Shown piece after piece: positions 545-9,890 of a DNA stretch of 10,730 bases. The stretch lies in IMG/VR virus record IMGVR_UViG_2703718851_000007. One strand, given 5' to 3'. A model generated the notes under the pieces. The model ran no database searches and was not told where the DNA came from. It saw only the letters and a list, made by a program, of their open reading frames with translations. The position numbers were made by a program, and so were the translations under genes. Every line of letters begins with the position of its first letter. Position 1 is the stretch's first letter. This DNA is from a virus. Lineage: Duplodnaviria; Heunggongvirae; Uroviricota; Caudoviricetes.

Positions 545-1198
545 TCAAGCCTGTTTTGTATCATTAGTATTTTTAGCGGTATGTCCGTCATATGCAGCAA
601 GGTAACTGCCATAGTGACGAAATAGCATTTCTGGTCCCTTATGGCCCATCTGGCCTGCAAGCCAGAACAGGTTCGCACCACGGCTGATATGGCTGGTGGC
701 GAATGTATGCCTGGTCTGATATGGGTTACGGTACCGGATACCTGCTTTACGTAAGGTTGGTATCCACGCTTTTTTCCTTATCGCATCGGCGCTGGCCCAC
801 GGTTTGTTTGTCTTTGGATCTTCAAAGACAGTAGCATCCTTCATGAATGTAAATGGCTTCTGATTTATCAGCGCCAACATTGCCTCTTCTGTCAGTTCAA
901 CTTTACGAGTACCGGCTTTTGTCTTTGTTCCTTTGATAACACCGACAACACTTGCGCTCTGGACATGGGCAGTTTTTCCAACAAAGTCGATATCACGCCA
1001 TCGAAGGGCACATAATTCAGAACTACGCAGGCCTGTATGTATAGCGAACCGGAACAGATTTTCCCATTGTTTGTTTCCGGCTGCTGCTAGTAATGCATCA
1101 ACTTCTGCTGGTGATAGCGGATCAACCACGTAGCTGCTTTCTGCTTCTGACTTATCACTTTGGTAGCGCGAAGCAGTTAACCGCAATGCGTCGAATGT
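545..1198 (-). pseudogene. Phage tyrosine integrase, 5'-truncated (catalytic domain only)
   Basis: Minus-strand frame is open only between an in-frame TAA (plus 1199-1201) and the stop at 545; no ATG near the 5' end (first start-like codon is TTG at 1186). Translation carries tyrosine-recombinase catalytic motifs (HTGLRSSEL, RHTFATSH, MGHKGPEMLFRHYGSY) but only about 25 residues precede the catalytic domain, whereas phage integrases are typically 330-400 aa with N-terminal arm/core-binding domains. Confidence 0.7.
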
Positions 1199-1886
1199 TT
1201 ATCAGCTTAACGTTGCGAAGCTTCAGGCAGCGGCATTTTCTCAACTGTCAGATTCTGACCCGTCAAAATCTGACGCATCAAAATCTGACCCGTCAAAATT
1301 TGATGCGTCGAAATCTGGCAAAAAAGCGGGTTTTCACCCGTCAGAATCTGGCGGGGATCCGTCAGTAAAATCAAAACATGATCCGTCAGATAAAAAAACT
1401 TCTCGTCCGGACGCTTCGCAACCGGACACGCAGACGGCTGAACAGGAGTTTTTAACTCGCCATCCTGATGCGGTTGTATTCAGCCCTAAAAAGCGCCAGT
1501 GGGGAACGCAGGATGATTTGACCTGCGCACAGTGGCTCTGGAAAAAAATCATCGCCCTGTACGAGCATGCCGCCGAATGTGACGGCGAGGTGGTTCGTCC
1601 CAAAGAACCGAACTGGACAGCCTGGGCAAACGAAATTCGCCTGATGTGTGTGCAGGATGGTCGTACTCATAAACAAATCTGCGAGATGTACAGCCGCGTC
1701 AGTCGCGATCCGTTCTGGTGCCGTAACGTGCTCAGCCCGTCGAAGCTGCGGGAAAAATGGGATGAGCTTTCCCTGCGCTTATCGCCGTCCGTCAGCACGT
1801 ACACAGAAAAACGCGAAGACCCGTACTTCAAAGCCAGTTACGACAATGTGGACTACAGCCAGATCCCGGCAGGATTCAGGGGGTGA
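1167..1886 (+). pseudogene. Lambdoid replication-initiator (O-like) gene, 3' fragment carrying internal iterons; no start codon
   Basis: Plus frame is open from 1167 (after TAG 1164-1166) to TGA 1884-1886 with no ATG or GTG; the first TTG is at 1518 (the 122-aa ORF in the track). The frame encodes a pentapeptide-repeat linker (SDPSK-SDASK-SDPSK-FDASK) across the 15-bp iterons, then a C-terminal domain (...CAQWLWKKIIALYEHAAECDGEVVRPKEPNWTAWANEIR...). Iterons inside the initiator gene followed by an A+T-rich stretch is the lambda O/ori layout. Family assignment is by architecture, not a recognised sequence match. Confidence 0.45.
1249..1323. repeat. Five tandem 15-bp direct repeats (iteron-like, putative ori)
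   Basis: Units TCAGATTCTGACCCG / TCAAAATCTGACGCA / TCAAAATCTGACCCG / TCAAAATTTGATGCG / TCGAAATCTGGCAAA at 1249, 1264, 1279, 1294, 1309. Degenerate copies follow at 1341-1355 and 1386-1400, with an A+T-rich tract at 1362-1400. Confidence 0.7.
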
Positions 1887-1888
1887 TC

Positions 1889-2377
1889 ATGAGTCTTTTG
1901 AATGACGTTCAGAAATTCATTGAAGCCCATCCGGGGTGTACTTCCGGAGACATTGCGGATGCTTTTGCAGGTTACTCACGGCAGCGCGTTCTGCAGTCAG
2001 CAAGCAAGTTACGTCAGAGTGGTCGTGTGGCTCACCGTTGTGAAGGGGATACACGCAGACATTTCCCGCGCCTGACTGAGAGAGCGCAGGAGGCGGAACC
2101 GCAACCAGTTCGTGAAACCAGACCTGTGCGCAATTTCTATGTCGGCACTAACGATCCCCGGGTGATTTTGTGCCTGACCCGCCAGGCGGAAGAACTGGAG
2201 TCCAGGGGCTTATACCGTCGTGCTGCAACGGTGTGGATGGCGGCATTCCGTGAAAGCCACTCCCAGCAAGAGCGAAACAATTTTCTTGCGCGTCGTGAGC
2301 GGTGTTTACGGAAAAGCAGCAAGCGCGCTGTATCGGGTGAAGAGTGGTATCTGTCAGGGAATTACGTGGGGGCGTAA
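1889..2377 (+). CDS. PerC-family-like transcriptional regulator (phage-encoded)
   Basis: ATG at 1889 preceded by GGGGGTGA; the track ORF begins at GTG 1883. Stop TAA 2375-2377 overlaps the next start (TAATG). C-terminal segment ...TRQAEELESRGLYRRAATVWMAAFRESHSQQERNNFLARRERCL resembles the PerC/Pch motif (KGLWRRAA...W) as recalled; the N-terminal 100 aa are unassigned. Confidence 0.45.
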   Translation: MSLLNDVQKFIEAHPGCTSGDIADAFAGYSRQRVLQSASKLRQSGRVAHRCEGDTRRHFPRLTERAQEAEPQPVRETRPVRNFYVGTNDPRVILCLTRQAEELESRGLYRRAATVWMAAFRESHSQQERNNFLARRERCLRKSSKRAVSGEEWYLSGNYVGA

Positions 2378-2703
2378 TGACGACGTTAACTCAATGCCAG
2401 CAGCAGGTGCTGGATATGCTGATTTCTTACCAGAAAGAACGTGGCTTCCCGCCAACCAATCAGGAGGTGGCTACCATGCTGGGATACCGTTCAGTGAATG
2501 CAGCGGTGGAGCATCTTCGCGCACTGGAGAAAAAAGGCGTCATCACGATAAAGCGTGGCGTGGCCCGGGGGATAAAGCTTCATACCGCGGTGAAGGACGA
2601 CGACAGCGAGGCGGTCGGGATTATCCGCTCACTGCTTGCCGGTGAGGAAAACGCCAGGCTGCGTGCAGCCCACTGGTTACATGAGAGGGGCCTGAAAGTA
2701 TGA
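2377..2703 (+). CDS. LexA-like DNA-binding-domain protein lacking the S24 peptidase domain
   Basis: From ATG 2377: MTTLTQCQQQVLDMLISYQKERGFPPTNQEVATMLGYRSVNAAVEHLRALEKKGVITIKRGVARGIKL... aligns residue-for-residue with the LexA N-terminal winged helix ([68 protein letters not shown]), including the recognition-helix residues (S.NAA.EH). A hinge-like LLAGEEN (compare LexA VAAGEP) is present, but the protein stops about 20 residues later; the Ser/Lys peptidase domain is absent. The track ORF starts at GTG 2344; ATG 2377 is preferred by homology and coupling. Confidence 0.7.
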   Translation: MTTLTQCQQQVLDMLISYQKERGFPPTNQEVATMLGYRSVNAAVEHLRALEKKGVITIKRGVARGIKLHTAVKDDDSEAVGIIRSLLAGEENARLRAAHWLHERGLKV

Positions 2704-3305
2704 AGTTGATCCTTCCTTTCCCGCCCAGCGTGAACACGTACTGGCGACACCCCAACAAAGGGGCATTTGCTGGTAAGAGCCTGATAAGCGCGGCGGGGCG
2801 AAAATTTCAGAGCGCGGCGTGCGCAGCAATAGTTGAGCAGTTACGTCGTCTGCCGAAACCAACGTCGGCACCTGCTTCAGTGGAGATCGTGTTGTTTCCT
2901 CCGGATAAACGCACCTGCGCCAGCGCACCGCTGGATCCGCTGACCCGCGCCGTGGTGATTTCCCTGTTTACCTGGCGGCGGGCGGAGCCTGATGACAATG
3001 CCGACGTCCCGATGGGATGGTGGGGGGATACCTGGCCTGCGGTACAGAATGACCGTTACGGCTCCCGACTGTGGCTGCTTCAGCGCAGCAAACTGACCAA
3101 TCAGCTGGTGCAGACGGTAAGGGGGTATATCCGCGAATGCCTGCAATGGATGATTGATGACGGCGTGGTGTCCCGTATTGATCTGGATATTCGCCGCACC
3201 GGGATTAATGAACTGGGTAACAGTATCACTCTCTGGTGTCGTGACGGACCGGTAATGATTTCTTTTGATGATCTGTGGAGTGCGATAACGCATGGCGGAC
3301 AGTGA
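2700..3305 (+). CDS. Chimeric ORF: RusA-like (Holliday-junction resolvase) N-terminal fragment fused in frame to a GPW/gp25-like baseplate wedge C-terminus
   Basis: N-terminus MKLILPFPPSVNTYWRH...VEIVLFPPDKR parallels RusA (ITLPWPPSNNRYYRH...IRIECHMPDRRRRDLDN), but the catalytic Asp cluster is missing. C-terminal part (...RYGSRLWLLQRSKL...WMIDDGVVSRIDLDI...) resembles gp25/GPW baseplate proteins and sits immediately upstream of baseplate J. Start ATG 2700 overlaps the previous stop (ATGA). Confidence 0.45.
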   Translation: MKLILPFPPSVNTYWRHPNKGAFAGKSLISAAGRKFQSAACAAIVEQLRRLPKPTSAPASVEIVLFPPDKRTCASAPLDPLTRAVVISLFTWRRAEPDDNADVPMGWWGDTWPAVQNDRYGSRLWLLQRSKLTNQLVQTVRGYIRECLQWMIDDGVVSRIDLDIRRTGINELGNSITLWCRDGPVMISFDDLWSAITHGGQ

Positions 3306-4928: not shown

Positions 4929-5507
4929 ATGCATCGTATAGACACGAAAACCGCGCAGAAGGATAAGTTCGGCGCGGGTAAGAACGGTTTTACCCGTGGT
5001 AACCCCCAGACTGGCACACCAGCCACCGATCTGGATGATGACTACTTTGACATGTTGCAGGAAGAACTTTGTAGCGTTGTTGAGGCATCCGGTGCCAGTC
5101 TGGAGAAGGCGCGGCACGACCAGTTGCTTACCGCGCTTCGTGCTCTGCTGTTAAGCCGCAAGAATCCGTTTGGTGATATCAAATCGGACGGCACGGTGAA
5201 AAAGGGTATTAACTTTCGCAGCCTGACCGACAGCATAGATACGTCTTCACCAATGGGACGCTTTTTCTTCCATGTCATGGGCGCACTTGCCGAAATGGAA
5301 AGGGAGCTGATAGTCGAACGTACCAGGGCGGGATTGGCTGCGGCTCGTGAAGAAGGGCGAATAGGTGGGCGTCGATCAAAGCTAACTGATGAACAGTGGG
5401 CGCAGGCAGGAAGGTTGGTTGCAGCAGGTGAATCACGACAGCGTGTGGCATTAATTTACGATGTTGGGATATCGACGCTATATAAAAAATTTCCGGCAAC
5501 CAGGTAA
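4929..5507 (+). pseudogene. Fusion of a tail-fibre N-terminal constant region (about 92 aa) to the C-terminal half of a Pin/Gin/Hin-family DNA invertase
   Basis: ATG 4929 with GGAG RBS. Residues 93-192 ([100 protein letters not shown]) are near-identical to the Pin/Gin C-terminal half including the HTH. The invertase N-terminal catalytic domain (active-site Ser about residue 10) is absent. Residues 1-92 ([47 protein letters not shown]...) look like a phage tail-fibre N-terminus. Confidence 0.75.
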
Positions 5508-5575: not shown

Positions 5576-5595
5576 TACTGTATATAATATCAGTA
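5576..5595. promoter_or_regulatory. LexA operator (SOS box) overlapping the putative umuDC promoter
   Basis: TACTGTATATAATATCAGTA: palindromic CTGT-N8-(T)CAG with an AT-rich spacer, 17 bp upstream of the umuD ATG. Compare the E. coli umuDC box TACTGTATATAAAAACAGTA; the right half TCAG also occurs in the uvrA box. A TATAAT hexamer (5583-5588) lies inside the box. Confidence 0.7.
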
Positions 5596-5611: not shown

Positions 5612-6034
5612 ATGATGCAGTTTTTCACTCCCTCCGGGTTGCGTGCAGTGCAGCCGCTTCCACTCTATGGCGATCTTGTACCCTGTGGTTTCCCAAGCCC
5701 TGCTCAGGACTACGTTGAACAGCGTATCGATCTTAACGAGCTACTGATACAACACCCCAGCGCCACGTACTTCGTTAAGGCATCTGGTGACTCGATGATT
5801 GATGCCGGGATCGGCGAAGGCGATTTACTGGTAGTGGACAGTTCACGCAAGGCAGAGCACGGCGATATCGTTATTGCTGCGGTGGACGGGGAATTTACCG
5901 TTAAGCGCCTACAGTTATGGCCAACTGTCCAGCTTAACCCTGAAAACCGCGCCTGGTCGCCTATCATCATCGGGAGCGAAGAAACGCTCGATGTTTTTGG
6001 TGTGGTGACGTTCATCGTGAAATCGACGGGTTGA
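5612..6034 (+). CDS. umuD: UmuD (SOS mutagenesis protein, S24 peptidase-like, DNA polymerase V subunit)
   Basis: Strong similarity to E. coli UmuD over the whole length: cleavage site LVPC-GFPSP, catalytic Ser (KASGDSM) and Lys (EFTVKRLQL) all present. ATG 5612 chosen (MMQFF...); the track starts at TTG 5600. Stop TGA 6032-6034 sits 2 nt before the umuC ATG. Confidence 0.9.
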
Positions 6035-6036
6035 TC

Positions 6037-7305
6037 ATGTACGCGTTGTGTGATGTGAACTCGTTCTATGCCTCCTGTGAAACTGTATTTCGCCCGGATC
6101 TCAAAGGTAGGCCGGTTGTGGTGCTTTCCAACAATGACGGTTGTGTTATTGCCCGCAGCACAGAGGCAAAGAAACTGGGTATCAAAATGGGTGAGCCGTA
6201 CTTCAGGCAGAAGGACTTTTTCCGGCGCCATGGGGTGGTGTGCTTCAGCAGCAACTATGAGCTGTATGCGGATATGTCTAACCGGGTGATGACCACGCTG
6301 GAAGAAATGTCGCCGCGCTGTGAAATTTACTCGATAGACGAGGCATTTTGTGACCTCACTGGTGTACGTAACTGTCGTGATCTGACTGATTTTGGCCGTG
6401 AAATCCGTGCTACTGTTCTGCAGCGAACGCATCTGACAGTGGGTGTTGGCATTGCCCAGACCAAGACGCTGGCCAAGCTGGCCAACCACGCGGCCAAACA
6501 ATGGCAGCGGCAGACGGGCGGGGTGGTAGACCTGTCCAGTGTCGATCGCCAGCGCAAACTGATGGCCGCGCTGCCGGTTGATGAAGTCTGGGGCATCGGT
6601 CGGCGTATTTCGAAAAAACTGGAGGCGATGGGGATCAAGACCGTACTGCAACTCGCTGATACGGACATCCGTTTTATCCGTAAACATTTTAATGTCGTGC
6701 TGGAGCGAACGGTGCGTGAGTTACGCGGAGAACCCTGCCTGGCACTGGAAGAATTCGCGCCAGTGAAACAGGAAATTATCTGTTCCCGCTCTTTTAGCGG
6801 TCGTATCACGGAGTATGAAGAGATGCGCCAGGCGATCTGCAGCTATGCCTCGCGGGCGGCAGAGAAACTGCGTGGCGAGCACCAGTATTGCCGTTTTATC
6901 TCGGCGTTTGTGAAGACCAGCCCGTTCGCACTGAACGAGCCCTATTATGGCAATAATGCCTCCGTGAAGCTTCTGACGCCTACGCAGGACAGTCGGGATA
7001 TCATCAGTGCAGCCATCCGCTGTCTGGACGCCATATGGCAAGACGGATATCGGTATCAGAAAGCCGGGGTGATGTTGGGTGATTTCTTCAGTCAGGGCGT
7101 GGCCCAGCTCAACTTGTTCGATGATAACGCGCCGCGCCCGGGCAGTGAGAAACTGATGGAAGTGCTGGATCACCTCAATGCCAAAGGCGGGAGGGGGACG
7201 CTGTATTTTGCAGGACAGGGTATCCAGCAGCAGTGGCAGATGAAACGGGAAATGCTTTCTCCACGTTACACCACCCGATTCTCTGATCTACCCGTTGTCA
7301 GGTGA
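6037..7305 (+). CDS. umuC: UmuC (Y-family DNA polymerase V catalytic subunit)
   Basis: [22 protein letters not shown]...[11 protein letters not shown]...[29 protein letters not shown]... is near-colinear with E. coli UmuC (MFALCDVNAFYASCE...), with the catalytic Asp/Glu residues conserved. ATG 6037 preferred over TTG 6031. Confidence 0.92.
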
Positions 7306-7428: not shown

Positions 7429-9177
7429 TTATAGGCAAGAAATTGCGTGTCTTACTGTATTGTTTAAATCATATATCGCGCCATATTTAAAACTTTCTTG
7501 CTTACCTATGAAATAAATGTCAAGTTTTTGATTGAGGTATATAAGGCGCTGCTTTTCATTTGTGGCAAACTGAGATATGTTACTAATTCTATAATTACTT
7601 CTTAAAAAAGCGTTGAATTGCTCTATATCTTTAATGCTCCATTCTTTTAAAATGCACTTGGTCAAAAATGGTGCGCCAAGTACTTCTAGCGTTTTATAGT
7701 TTCCCATGGGATCTAATTTGAGTAATAAGTTAACATCAAATAAAGCCCAACCATCAGTTTCAATAATTTCCTTAATTGTCTTTAAGTTTTTTCTCTTTTC
7801 AATATTATTATGACGGCCTGATAATATTGAAAATATAAGTTTCCCATCATCAAAGCCACTAGTCCAACTACTGATTGGATTGTTGTTATGAAATTCAAAG
7901 TAAGTAATAATGTCCTCGTCACTAAATTCGAGTGATTTAGAACTCATGAACTGCAATGTTAGTAATGATGATTTTGGAAGATATTTATGATAAGTCAAAT
8001 ATTCATAGTTCTGAACCGCCCTAAGCCATTGGTGCAAATCACATGGTATTGTTCTAGAAATTAAACCAATAATCGTGGGGAAAAATTCTTTTTCATCTGT
8101 CTCCTGTAGTTCTGGTCGAGTTGAAACTGCAATATCAATTGTACTTAAAGGTGTTGGCACATAAAAAACATCGTCCAATATATCATAAAGAGAAACATGA
8201 CCACTGTAGTAATTTTTAAGGTGAATATTAATTTTATAATTGTGTAATGTAGACAAAAGTCTCGGTTCATGTGGATTTTCATCGCTGCTGGAATTTTGGG
8301 GTGGGATATGCTGGATGCTGTCAATGATCAGTTCGTCCATGGATTTGTTATGGATAAATAACAAGATAAAATATGACAAAATTGAGCTTAGTATGGTTTT
8401 AGAGGCGATTTTCCACTCTAGTTCAGGGTGGTTTTCTGCGTGTAAATATAATGGAAGTGCAGTATTTAAACACCTCATTAAAATTCTTATGTTAACTATG
8501 TTATGGTATGATATTATTTCTTCGAAAATCATTTTGTCTTCAGTGGGGAAGTACTGTAGTTTTTCTTCAATTATTCTCATATCTAATATGTCGCGAGGGT
8601 TTGGGTTGTAATGAAGTGAATCAGAAATAATTTTTTCTTTATGTTCTAATGACAGGTGGGATTCGGCAGATGTATTAGATATAACAATAAAATCCAAACT
8701 AGAGATTTTTGAGGTTGAATATAACGAATGACAATAAGTTAGTATTTCATTGGCCAGTGAGGGAGTGCTTAATCGCTCAATGTCATCTAATATAAATATG
8801 CCACTGAGTTTGGAGAGTATGTTCTCTCTTACACTTGAACCAATGGAACTGAACACACCATTAAGCACATTGGCACTAGCGGGAGAACCACTGCTTACAC
8901 TACCCAAACCAGAAATAGTATCTAACCCAGACTTAAGAGTGTCTATATCTTGAAGATAGTAGCAGTCAATAATCTTTGCTTTGAAATCTGCAAGAGACTT
9001 AACGCCTAGTAATGAAATATAATAAAACACATTAAGATCATAAAAACGAGGAAATACATTTTTAATAAAAAAAGTTTTACCTGTTCCCCATTTTCCATCA
9101 ATAAAAATAAGTCCATCTCTTTCGGATTGTAGAAGATGAACTATTTTTACAATCAAATTGCTATTAGAGTTTTCCAT
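7429..9177 (-). CDS. KAP-family P-loop NTPase (582 aa), AT-rich, horizontally acquired
   Basis: Walker A FIDGKWGTGKTFF at residues about 25-37. Walker B with the KAP-type Asp-Asp...Arg signature GIFILDDIERL about 90 residues later. An internal hydrophobic segment (TILSSILSYFILLFIH) is consistent with the membrane insertions described for KAP NTPases. Codon usage is dominated by AAT/ATT/TTT/AAA; GC is roughly 30% by eye versus about 50% for the flanking umuC. Confidence 0.65.
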   Translation of the reverse strand: MENSNSNLIVKIVHLLQSERDGLIFIDGKWGTGKTFFIKNVFPRFYDLNVFYYISLLGVKSLADFKAKIIDCYYLQDIDTLKSGLDTISGLGSVSSGSPASANVLNGVFSSIGSSVRENILSKLSGIFILDDIERLSTPSLANEILTYCHSLYSTSKISSLDFIVISNTSAESHLSLEHKEKIISDSLHYNPNPRDILDMRIIEEKLQYFPTEDKMIFEEIISYHNIVNIRILMRCLNTALPLYLHAENHPELEWKIASKTILSSILSYFILLFIHNKSMDELIIDSIQHIPPQNSSSDENPHEPRLLSTLHNYKINIHLKNYYSGHVSLYDILDDVFYVPTPLSTIDIAVSTRPELQETDEKEFFPTIIGLISRTIPCDLHQWLRAVQNYEYLTYHKYLPKSSLLTLQFMSSKSLEFSDEDIITYFEFHNNNPISSWTSGFDDGKLIFSILSGRHNNIEKRKNLKTIKEIIETDGWALFDVNLLLKLDPMGNYKTLEVLGAPFLTKCILKEWSIKDIEQFNAFLRSNYRISNISQFATNEKQRLIYLNQKLDIYFIGKQESFKYGAIYDLNNTVRHAISCL

Positions 9178-9254: not shown

Positions 9255-9890
9255 TTATTCAATTGAAACAATAAGATATTCACCTTGATTTTTCGCATTA
9301 CCCATCGCTCGCGTAACTGCATGCCAGATAAACTTGTCAGCTTGCACGGCACCGTAGTCGGTAATCGCTTCTGCTTCCTTGCCTCGGCGTCTTGGCGCAT
9401 CCCATTCCCGGGCTGCCTCCGGTGACAATACAAGTGGCTGTCGGTCGTGTATATCAACCAAGCCTTCATCGGCCGCAGACGTCACTATTAAAAAACCTTC
9501 GGCCTCGTCACTACGTTCGAAGGGGCGCTGCCGATTGCCGCCATGAATATTGGCTACCCATCAGTTCGGTGAATGAAGTAGGGTTGTTTTTTTGCTATCT
9601 TCGGTCTTGTCGAGTAGGGCACCGAAGTTACCTTCAACGCCCCCTCTAAGAACCGTGCGTGAGAGTTTCCAGCTCACACGGCTCAAGCCTTATCAAACAC
9701 CACTGTGAAATGATGCGGCAGGTGCAGTCAGACGCGTGGTCCGGGATCGGATATAATCTGTCCAATCCGTGTCATATGGATTAAGTGCAGATGCGACGAG
9801 TCTGTGACGGACAATTTTGACGCTCTGAGCGTGAACCAGCCTCAGTATTGTAACTTTCCCCGTATCAGTGTCCCGATAAAGACCTGACAC
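9255..9890 (-). pseudogene. SRAP/YedK-like (DUF159, abasic-site processing protein) pseudogene, 5'-truncated with nonsense and frameshift lesions
   Basis: C-terminal ORF (9255-9485) reads ...AADEGLVDIHDRQPLVLSPEAAREW...GKEAEAI...FIWHAVTRAMGNAKNQGEYL, matching the YedK C-terminus (AADQGLVDIHDRRPLVLSPEAAREW...SWHPVSRAVGNVKNQGAEL). Upstream, a different frame gives KKQPYFIHRTDG-stop-PIFMAAIGS (YedK KKQPFFIYRADGQPIFMAAIGS: a Q codon is replaced by TAG), then a frameshift. Further upstream fragments (HLHL, GKVTIL) sit in two other frames. The N-terminal MCGR catalytic-Cys region is not present. Confidence 0.65.

Follow-up and report, generated by a model that had tools for sequence, protein, structure and literature searches.

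A conserved short LexA-type protein of lambdoid and SfV-like phages, encoded by an intact gene in a decayed prophage

The 10,730-nucleotide viral sequence IMGVR_UViG_2703718851_000007 (Caudoviricetes; here called the window, and analyzed over its full length) carries a gene for a 108-amino acid protein with a LexA-type N-terminal domain. Lambdoid and SfV-like phages have a conserved delayed-early gene of which this is almost certainly an intact copy, and its product combines a winged helix-turn-helix domain derived from LexA with a linker and a C-terminal helical hairpin that is specific to the family. The family is already annotated and extremely common, and we found no functional study of it in the searchable literature. 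A preliminary description, made from the sequence alone, had placed an open reading frame (ORF) with a LexA-type domain at this position, which is confirmed, and had regarded its product as a LexA look-alike that cannot be cleaved, which is a reasonable core idea.

Domain organization of the 108-residue protein

On inspection of the ORFs in the window, the gene is a frame of 108 codons that runs from an ATG at 2377 to a TGA at 2701-2703 (Table 1). A GTG at 2344 is a possible upstream start, yet all homologues begin with MTTLT at the ATG. The gene overlaps both of its neighbors, as had been described: the stop codon (TAA) of the PerC-like ORF upstream shares one base with the ATG at 2377 (TAATG), and the downstream ORF, which opens with a rusA fragment, starts at 2700 within the stop of the LexA-like gene (ATGA).

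In a Pfam scan, residues 1-65 matched the profile LexA_DNA_bind (PF01726) over its entire length (1-65 of 65) with an E value of 2.9e-19 and 69 bits (cut-off, 23.7), and the S24 peptidase (PF00717) had no match in the 108-residue protein. The NCBIfam model lexA (TIGR00498) aligned only over positions 1-91 of 203, with a score of 71.9 bits that lies below the equivalog cut-off of 110.95. The protein thus has a LexA-type DNA-binding domain and no S24 autocleavage domain, as proposed before. Because the S24 protease and dimerization domain is absent, RecA-stimulated self-cleavage of the 108-residue protein is not possible.

The best solved relative is the N-terminal domain of Escherichia coli LexA (PDB code 1lea; E value, 2.9e-16), which aligns with residues 2-70 without gaps; 35 of 70 residues (50%) are identical to E. 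coli LexA. The fold of the predicted model matches 1lea and 3jso. The DNA-contact residues given for E. coli LexA are Ser-39, Asn-41, Ala-42, and the glutamates at positions 44 and 45 (Knegtel 1995, quoted in PMC3091678 and PMC13416735). The window protein has Ser-39, Asn-41, Ala-42, Val-44, and Glu-45 at these positions, and His-46, Lys-53, Gly-61, Arg-64, Gly-65, and Ile-66 are also as in LexA. With four of five contact residues kept, the earlier claim of LexA-like recognition residues holds for Ser-39, Asn-41, Ala-42, and Glu-45 and fails at position 44, where glutamate is changed to valine. In an alignment of the close family, these four contact residues and the wing residues Gly-61, Arg-64, Gly-65, and Ile-66 are kept. 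The same contact and wing residues are mostly kept in an alignment of distant relatives, with Glu-45 present in 7 of 11. At codon 67 (2575-2577), the window copy encodes lysine, whereas all 142 other copies examined encode threonine; E. coli LexA has an arginine at this position, which is the end of the wing.

Two AlphaFold runs, with mean predicted local distance difference test (pLDDT) scores of 79.6 and 87.2, gave the same three parts, namely the winged helix-turn-helix domain, a linker, and two helices. In both models, the pLDDT of the linker drops below 50 around residues 71-75, and helices 75-88 and 93-103 that follow are predicted with confidence (pLDDT ~90). This tail keeps its hydrophobic positions (79, 80, 82, 83, 86, 87, 93, 97, 100, and 101) in relatives with as little as 37% identity; Ala-97 and Leu-101 are invariant, and Gly-105 is found in 12 of 14 sequences. 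The alignments yield the family pattern EAxxxIRxL...ARxRAxxxL...G for the tail, which is present in the window protein. No sequence match to the tail was found in the PDB, in Pfam, or in GIL01 gp7. Because the hydrophobic positions exceed the needs of a lone hairpin, they may form an oligomerization interface, which makes the C-terminal hairpin a candidate dimerization or oligomerization element.

The hairpin includes the motif LLAGEE (residues 86-91), in which the preliminary description had seen a retained hinge of the LexA type. In the two AlphaFold models, residues 86-88 form the end of helix 4 and residues 89-92 a turn. The Ala-Gly pair (residues 88-89) is replaced in distant relatives, where the motif reads LTRK, VERE, LSGG, IAEE, or MADT. 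The predicted helix end and turn and the lack of conservation rule out LLAGEE as a hinge or a relic of the LexA cleavage site.

Distribution, conservation, and gene neighborhood

Residues 1-108 match the complete profile of PHROG 362 ('transcriptional repressor'; 1-106 of 106; E value, 6.4e-59). At 97-99% protein identity, the gene is present in ~50 sequenced phages, some of them plaque-forming (54 phage records matched over at least 80% of the gene length); these include SfII, SfIV, SfV, mEp460, cdtI, Ayreon, and many Stx2a, Stx2c, and Stx2k phages. It is also carried by 2223 of 5426 complete E. coli genomes (41%), at 95-99% nucleotide identity and in up to four copies per genome, and by at least 570 loci in IMG/VR. 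The E. coli copies are labeled either 'LexA family transcriptional regulator' or simply 'LexA family protein'. With annotated copies in thousands of genomes, the gene is not peculiar to this locus, and the preliminary description overstated its novelty. The family is probably identical to pham 237 (pfam01726) of a survey of Shiga toxin (Stx) phages in which it is simply listed (PMC8136144). PADLOC returned no meaningful match for the LexA-like protein.

The 142 full-length copies represent 75 nucleotide alleles, all of 327 nt. Among these copies, the ratio of non-synonymous to synonymous polymorphism (pN/pS) is 0.09 (61 synonymous versus 25 non-synonymous codon variants), and a premature stop was seen in a single copy. 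Judged from these alleles, the gene is under purifying selection. An exhaustive profile search also found relatives at 37-50% identity that comprise ~105-118 amino acids and possess the same C-terminal pattern. Many database proteins in the profile search have two LexA_DNA_bind stretches per chain; such tandem LexA N-terminal domains represent a different route to a two-headed binder without an S24 domain.

In complete phages, the gene is located in the rightward early operon, in the order cI / cro - cII-like - replication gene - (PerC) - (dam) - gene - rusA - ... - Q. All 131 IMG/VR loci with enough flanking sequence have rusA directly downstream, and the gene upstream is dam in 83, PerC in 46, and another gene in 2 of them. 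The gene is likewise followed directly by rusA in SfII, SfV, mEp460, mEp390, and metagenomic relatives at 43-49% identity, and wherever coordinates are given, the last 4 nt of the gene (ATGA) contain the rusA start. SfIV and a Klebsiella phage possess the gene without an intact rusA adjoining it. For the distant relatives with retrievable contigs, the slot reads cI (S24 type) / cro - CP76 - replication gene - (methylases) - gene - rusA - Rha/ANT - DUF968 - Q - holin.

Comparison with known LexA-type proteins

The 108-residue protein shares with E. coli LexA's N-terminal domain the ungapped 50% identity over 70 residues and the contact and wing residues described above. In contrast to LexA, it has neither the S24 protease/dimerization domain nor a functional cleavage site, carries asparagine in place of Arg-28 and valine in place of Glu-44, and possesses a C-terminal helical hairpin of its own. 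Whereas LexA is encoded by an autoregulated host gene, the phage protein belongs to an early lytic operon. It resembles the LexA(1-84) cleavage fragment in that a LexA DNA-binding domain is detached from the dimerization/protease domain. However, it ends in ...GLKV after a structured hairpin, whereas LexA(1-84) has an exposed ...VAA end, and it is genetically encoded and, by the allele comparison, under purifying selection. From PHROG 362, or the RefSeq 'LexA family transcriptional regulator', with which it shares the end-to-end profile match and the same neighbors, the window copy differs in Lys-67 and in its position within a promoter-less remnant; there is no structural difference.

Phage-encoded truncated LexA homologues are a known kind of protein, and the 108-residue protein belongs to it. 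The only characterized phage homologue of this kind, and the closest characterized analogue, is gp6 of the Bacillus tectivirus GIL01, a truncated LexA homologue that recognizes a palindrome of its own (GaCACAnnTGTGaC) and activates the late promoter P3 (PMC6182141). Both proteins are phage-encoded LexA DNA-binding domains without a protease domain. A profile comparison aligned 63 columns of the two (probability, 96%; identity, 33%), and BLASTP gave no alignment between the two. gp6 resembles Bacillus LexA (44% identity) (PMC6182141), whereas the 108-residue protein is nearer to enterobacterial LexA (50%), and the two appear, from these comparisons, to be of independent origin. gp6 comprises only 66 amino acids and has no tail. 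At the equivalents of Asn-41 and Glu-45, gp6 has a lysine (Lys-38) and an arginine, whereas the residues of the 108-residue protein are LexA-like. By its recognition residues, the window protein is nearer to a LexA-type reader than gp6, yet not identical to LexA. The two proteins also differ in host, phage type, and regulatory logic, with Q antitermination in the phages that carry the 108-residue protein.

Proposed function and alternative explanations

We tentatively propose that the protein is a RecA-insensitive binder of LexA-type operators that is made early in lytic growth and restores repression at SOS boxes. The hairpin would stand in for the C-terminal domain of LexA as the dimerization element, and the dimer would bind LexA-type operators with the half-site geometry CTG-N10-CAG. 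Its synthesis from pR would begin only once a prophage is induced or a cell is infected, and a non-cleavable repressor would then return to SOS-box promoters, in host and phage alike, at the time when host LexA is destroyed. Repression could be restored during SOS because the protein would be made only after induction or infection and would not be removable by RecA. Operator binding, weak and cooperative, persists in the LexA 1-84 cleavage fragment, and turnover of LexA fragments by ClpXP prevents lingering repression. The degradation of LexA cleavage fragments by ClpXP is cited in 10.1101/2020.07.14.201889. By analogy, operator binding by LexA 1-84 and the ClpXP precedent make the model plausible. 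The LexA-like recognition residues, the confident tail helices with their conserved hydrophobic positions, and the strong SOS boxes of carrier phages, as possible targets, also speak for it.

Several points weigh against this proposal. Arg-28 (in 9 of 11 LexA orthologues) and Glu-44 (in 8 of 11) are never kept in the short family; the close group has Asn-28 and Val-44, and distant members are variable at both positions. Because these two residues are never kept, the specificity or affinity of the short family for DNA may differ from that of LexA. That the hairpin dimerizes is only inferred. Searches of the literature found catalogue mentions of the PHROG 362-type family and no experiment on it, and in the window, the native promoter pR is deleted. 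Phages with the LexA-like gene do possess strong SOS boxes, such boxes are common in phage early regions, and the gene is found in 50 of 57 SfII-type cI loci that bear a box, but these loci are near-identical relatives, so that the link is confounded and non-discriminating. The association of box and gene weighs little because the loci are closely related and host LexA explains the boxes equally well; indeed, host LexA accounts well enough for the SOS boxes of the carrier phages.

It is possible, if somewhat doubtful, that the protein recognizes an operator of its own that is unrelated to SOS boxes and regulates delayed-early or late phage genes, by activation or by repression, as GIL01 gp6 does at P3. 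gp6 provides the example of a phage-borne truncated LexA homologue that has been re-targeted and even activates transcription (PMC6182141). The consistent loss of both Arg-28 and Glu-44 in the short family and the variation of position 45 in distant members would fit such a re-targeting, and the tail and the flexible linker could fix a half-site spacing unlike that of LexA. However, the close family keeps Asn-41, Ala-42, and Glu-45, unlike gp6, and the late genes of these phages are already under Q antitermination. In addition, the inverted repeats near the gene were either origin iterons or weak, and except for these iterons, no conserved palindrome was found around the neighbors that are always inherited together with the gene. 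It is improbable that the protein, rather than being a transcription factor, assists the Holliday-junction resolvase RusA, or phage recombination or replication, as an accessory that binds DNA. λ NinH, a small DNA-binding protein of the nin region that adjoins Rap, offers a comparison for such a role. The constant position of rusA immediately 3′ of the gene in the IMG/VR loci, the same order in the named phages and metagenomic relatives, and the ATGA overlap speak for an accessory of RusA, but tight linkage in mosaic phages is explicable by module inheritance, and SfIV and the Klebsiella phage have the gene without an intact adjoining rusA. The strongly constrained LexA-type recognition helix suggests sequence-specific binding instead.

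Interference with host LexA itself is highly improbable, be it by dominant-negative titration of LexA dimers, which the preliminary description had considered, or as a decoy substrate through the Ala-Gly of LLAGEE. LexA dimerizes through its C-terminal domain; because this domain is absent here, and with it the known LexA dimer interface, titration is unlikely on general structural grounds. A decoy would draw on Ala-88 and Gly-89, which pair weakly with Ala-84 and Gly-85 of LexA in hidden Markov model alignments, but the posterior support for the alignment across this stretch is low, the segment is helical in the two models, and Ala-Gly is not conserved in relatives. Hardly any probability remains that the gene is what a deletion left of the 5′ end of a full-length LexA- or CI-like repressor. 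Three deletion junctions in the window are real and would suit this explanation, but the nearest two (1178/1179 and 2902-2908) both lie outside the gene, which ends at a native stop, and homologues of 104-112 amino acids with the same C terminus are found in intact phages and in thousands of genomes. The 108-residue form is the norm in intact phages, and a length of 104-112 amino acids is the family norm down to 37% identity; a recent deletion remnant that is conserved nowhere else, which the preliminary description had named as a refutation, does not match these findings.

The decayed prophage and its cargo

The window represents a decayed SfV-like myovirus prophage at ssrA. Its intact form is found in E. 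coli CP55_Sichuan, in the order int ... cI - cro - ymfL - DUF4222 - O-like - PerC - LexA-like - RusA - KilA-N - DUF968 - Q - lysis - terminase - head - tail - gp46 - J - ymfQ - tail fibre - pin - umuD - umuC - KAP NTPase - ... - ssrA. Alignment to this prophage defines three deletions. At 1178/1179, 5.1 kb are gone, comprising cI, cro, and pR together with the 5′ parts of int and of the O-like gene. At 2902-2908, where the ends overlap by 7 bp, ~21.5 kb are gone, and rusA′ is fused to gp46′. The third deletion, at 5200-5202, removed 1.4 kb and fused the tail-fibre gene to pin′. The remaining O-like fragment contains 5-6 direct 15-bp repeats (GTCAAAATCTGACNC) that reach to ~1390 and are lambdoid origin-type iterons.

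Because cI, cro, and pR are lost, expression in the window is doubtful, and the LexA-like gene is probably a passenger here that is poorly expressed or silent. A consensus scan upstream of the PerC - LexA-like - rusA′ block gave no convincing σ70 match. Of the retained operon postulated in the preliminary description, the internal coupling of PerC, LexA-like gene, and rusA′ is kept, whereas the promoter was lost with the 5.1-kb deletion and rusA is truncated.

The preliminary description had also placed the gene upstream of a umuDC operon under a LexA box. The box at 5576-5595 does exist. It has one mismatch to CTGT-N8-ACAG, and its matrix score of 20.8 (median of E. coli SOS boxes, 20.6, with a matrix made from 21 E. 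coli boxes) is typical of real boxes. Its nearness to the LexA-like gene, however, came about by accident through the ~21.5-kb deletion: the LexA-like gene and umuDC lie ~26 kb apart at opposite ends of the intact prophage and 2.9 kb apart in the window. umuDC is cargo between the phage invertase gene (pin) and the ssrA attachment site; both genes are so annotated where two E. coli genomes have the identical region, and umuDC occurs as cargo in only a few genomes.

Two further genes of the window accompany this cargo. A KAP-family P-loop nucleoside triphosphatase (NTPase) gene adjoins umuDC, likewise between pin and ssrA, and its 582-residue product matches the candidate defence family PDC-S49 of PADLOC (E value, 7.8e-14). 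A fragment of an SOS-response-associated peptidase (SRAP/YedK-like) gene, which is a frameshifted pseudogene in the identical E. coli regions, is a further DNA damage-related cargo relic beside umuDC.

SOS boxes were also observed at two sites in carrier phages. A perfect box lies inside cI (SfII, 2446-2465; mEp460, 31970-31989), in the linker codons for SNTVYKNS; its sequence, TACTGTATATAAAAACAGTA, we take to be identical to the E. coli umuDC operator, and the exact 20-mer is present in 79 of 80 SfII-type cI loci from IMG/VR. A DNA methyltransferase gene downstream of Q has a strong box, TACTGTAAAAATAAACAGTG, 8 nt past its start codon (SfV, 34170-34189; mEp460, 41021-41040); this box was found in 22 of 80 loci with the LexA-like gene.

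Table 1. Coordinates of the LexA-like gene, its parts, and other features of the window
Feature	Position	Strand	Evidence or remarks
O-like replication gene, 3′ fragment	1179-1886	+	PHROG 391 'replication initiation O-like'; 5′ end is the junction of the first deletion
Origin-type 15-bp iterons in the O-like fragment	1247-1322		
PerC-family regulator gene, yfdN-like	1883-2377	+	Pfam PerC, E 8.7e-10; PHROG 1324; RefSeq equivalent is yfdN
LexA N-terminal domain gene, intact, 108 amino acids	2377-2703	+	PF01726, E 2.9e-19; PHROG 362; RefSeq 'LexA family transcriptional regulator'
Winged helix-turn-helix domain, residues 1-68	2377-2580	+	Helices 6-22, 28-35, 40-52; strands 56-58, 66-68
Recognition helix, residues 40-52	2494-2532	+	
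Acidic, poorly ordered linker HTAVKD, residues 69-74	2581-2598	+	pLDDT <50 at 71-75; most variable stretch of the family
Conserved two-helix hairpin, residues 75-108, candidate dimerization module	2599-2700	+	Helices 75-88, 93-103; includes LLAGEE 86-91
Chimeric ORF, rusA 5′ part (2700-2908)::baseplate gp46	2700-3305	+	Weak RusA match, residues 3-72; GP46 match, 81-183
Chimeric ORF, tail-fibre′::pin′	4929-5507		Resolvase profile 91-144 and HTH_7 (residues 147-190); without catalytic N terminus
SOS (LexA) box TACTGTATATAATATCAGTA, cargo operator just upstream of umuD	5576-5595	+	Motif match and matrix score
umuD	5615-6034	+	Pfam Peptidase_S24; RefSeq annotation of 99.9% identical region
umuC	6037-7305	+	RefSeq annotation of 99.9% identical region
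KAP-family P-loop NTPase gene	7429-9177	-	
SRAP/YedK-like fragment	~9255-9592	-	

Implications

The locus itself, a decayed prophage without a promoter, is ordinary, and the functional question belongs to the whole family. Should the protein in fact bind SOS boxes, phages would gain direct control of the host DNA damage regulon, independent of RecA, through a prophage gene that is very common. This regulon includes mutagenic polymerases such as the umuDC of the same prophage lineage, and the control would bear on antibiotic-induced mutagenesis, on the induction of Shiga toxin phages, and on the competition between co-resident prophages. The farther-reaching notion of a LexA surrogate, proof against RecA and carried by prophages in ~40% of E. 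coli strains, that serves as a phage-run SOS off-switch during lytic growth while host LexA is cleaved seems rather unlikely. If true, the switch would silence SOS toxins of the host and the mutagenic polymerase as well as, in rival prophages, LexA-controlled antirepressors or cargo.

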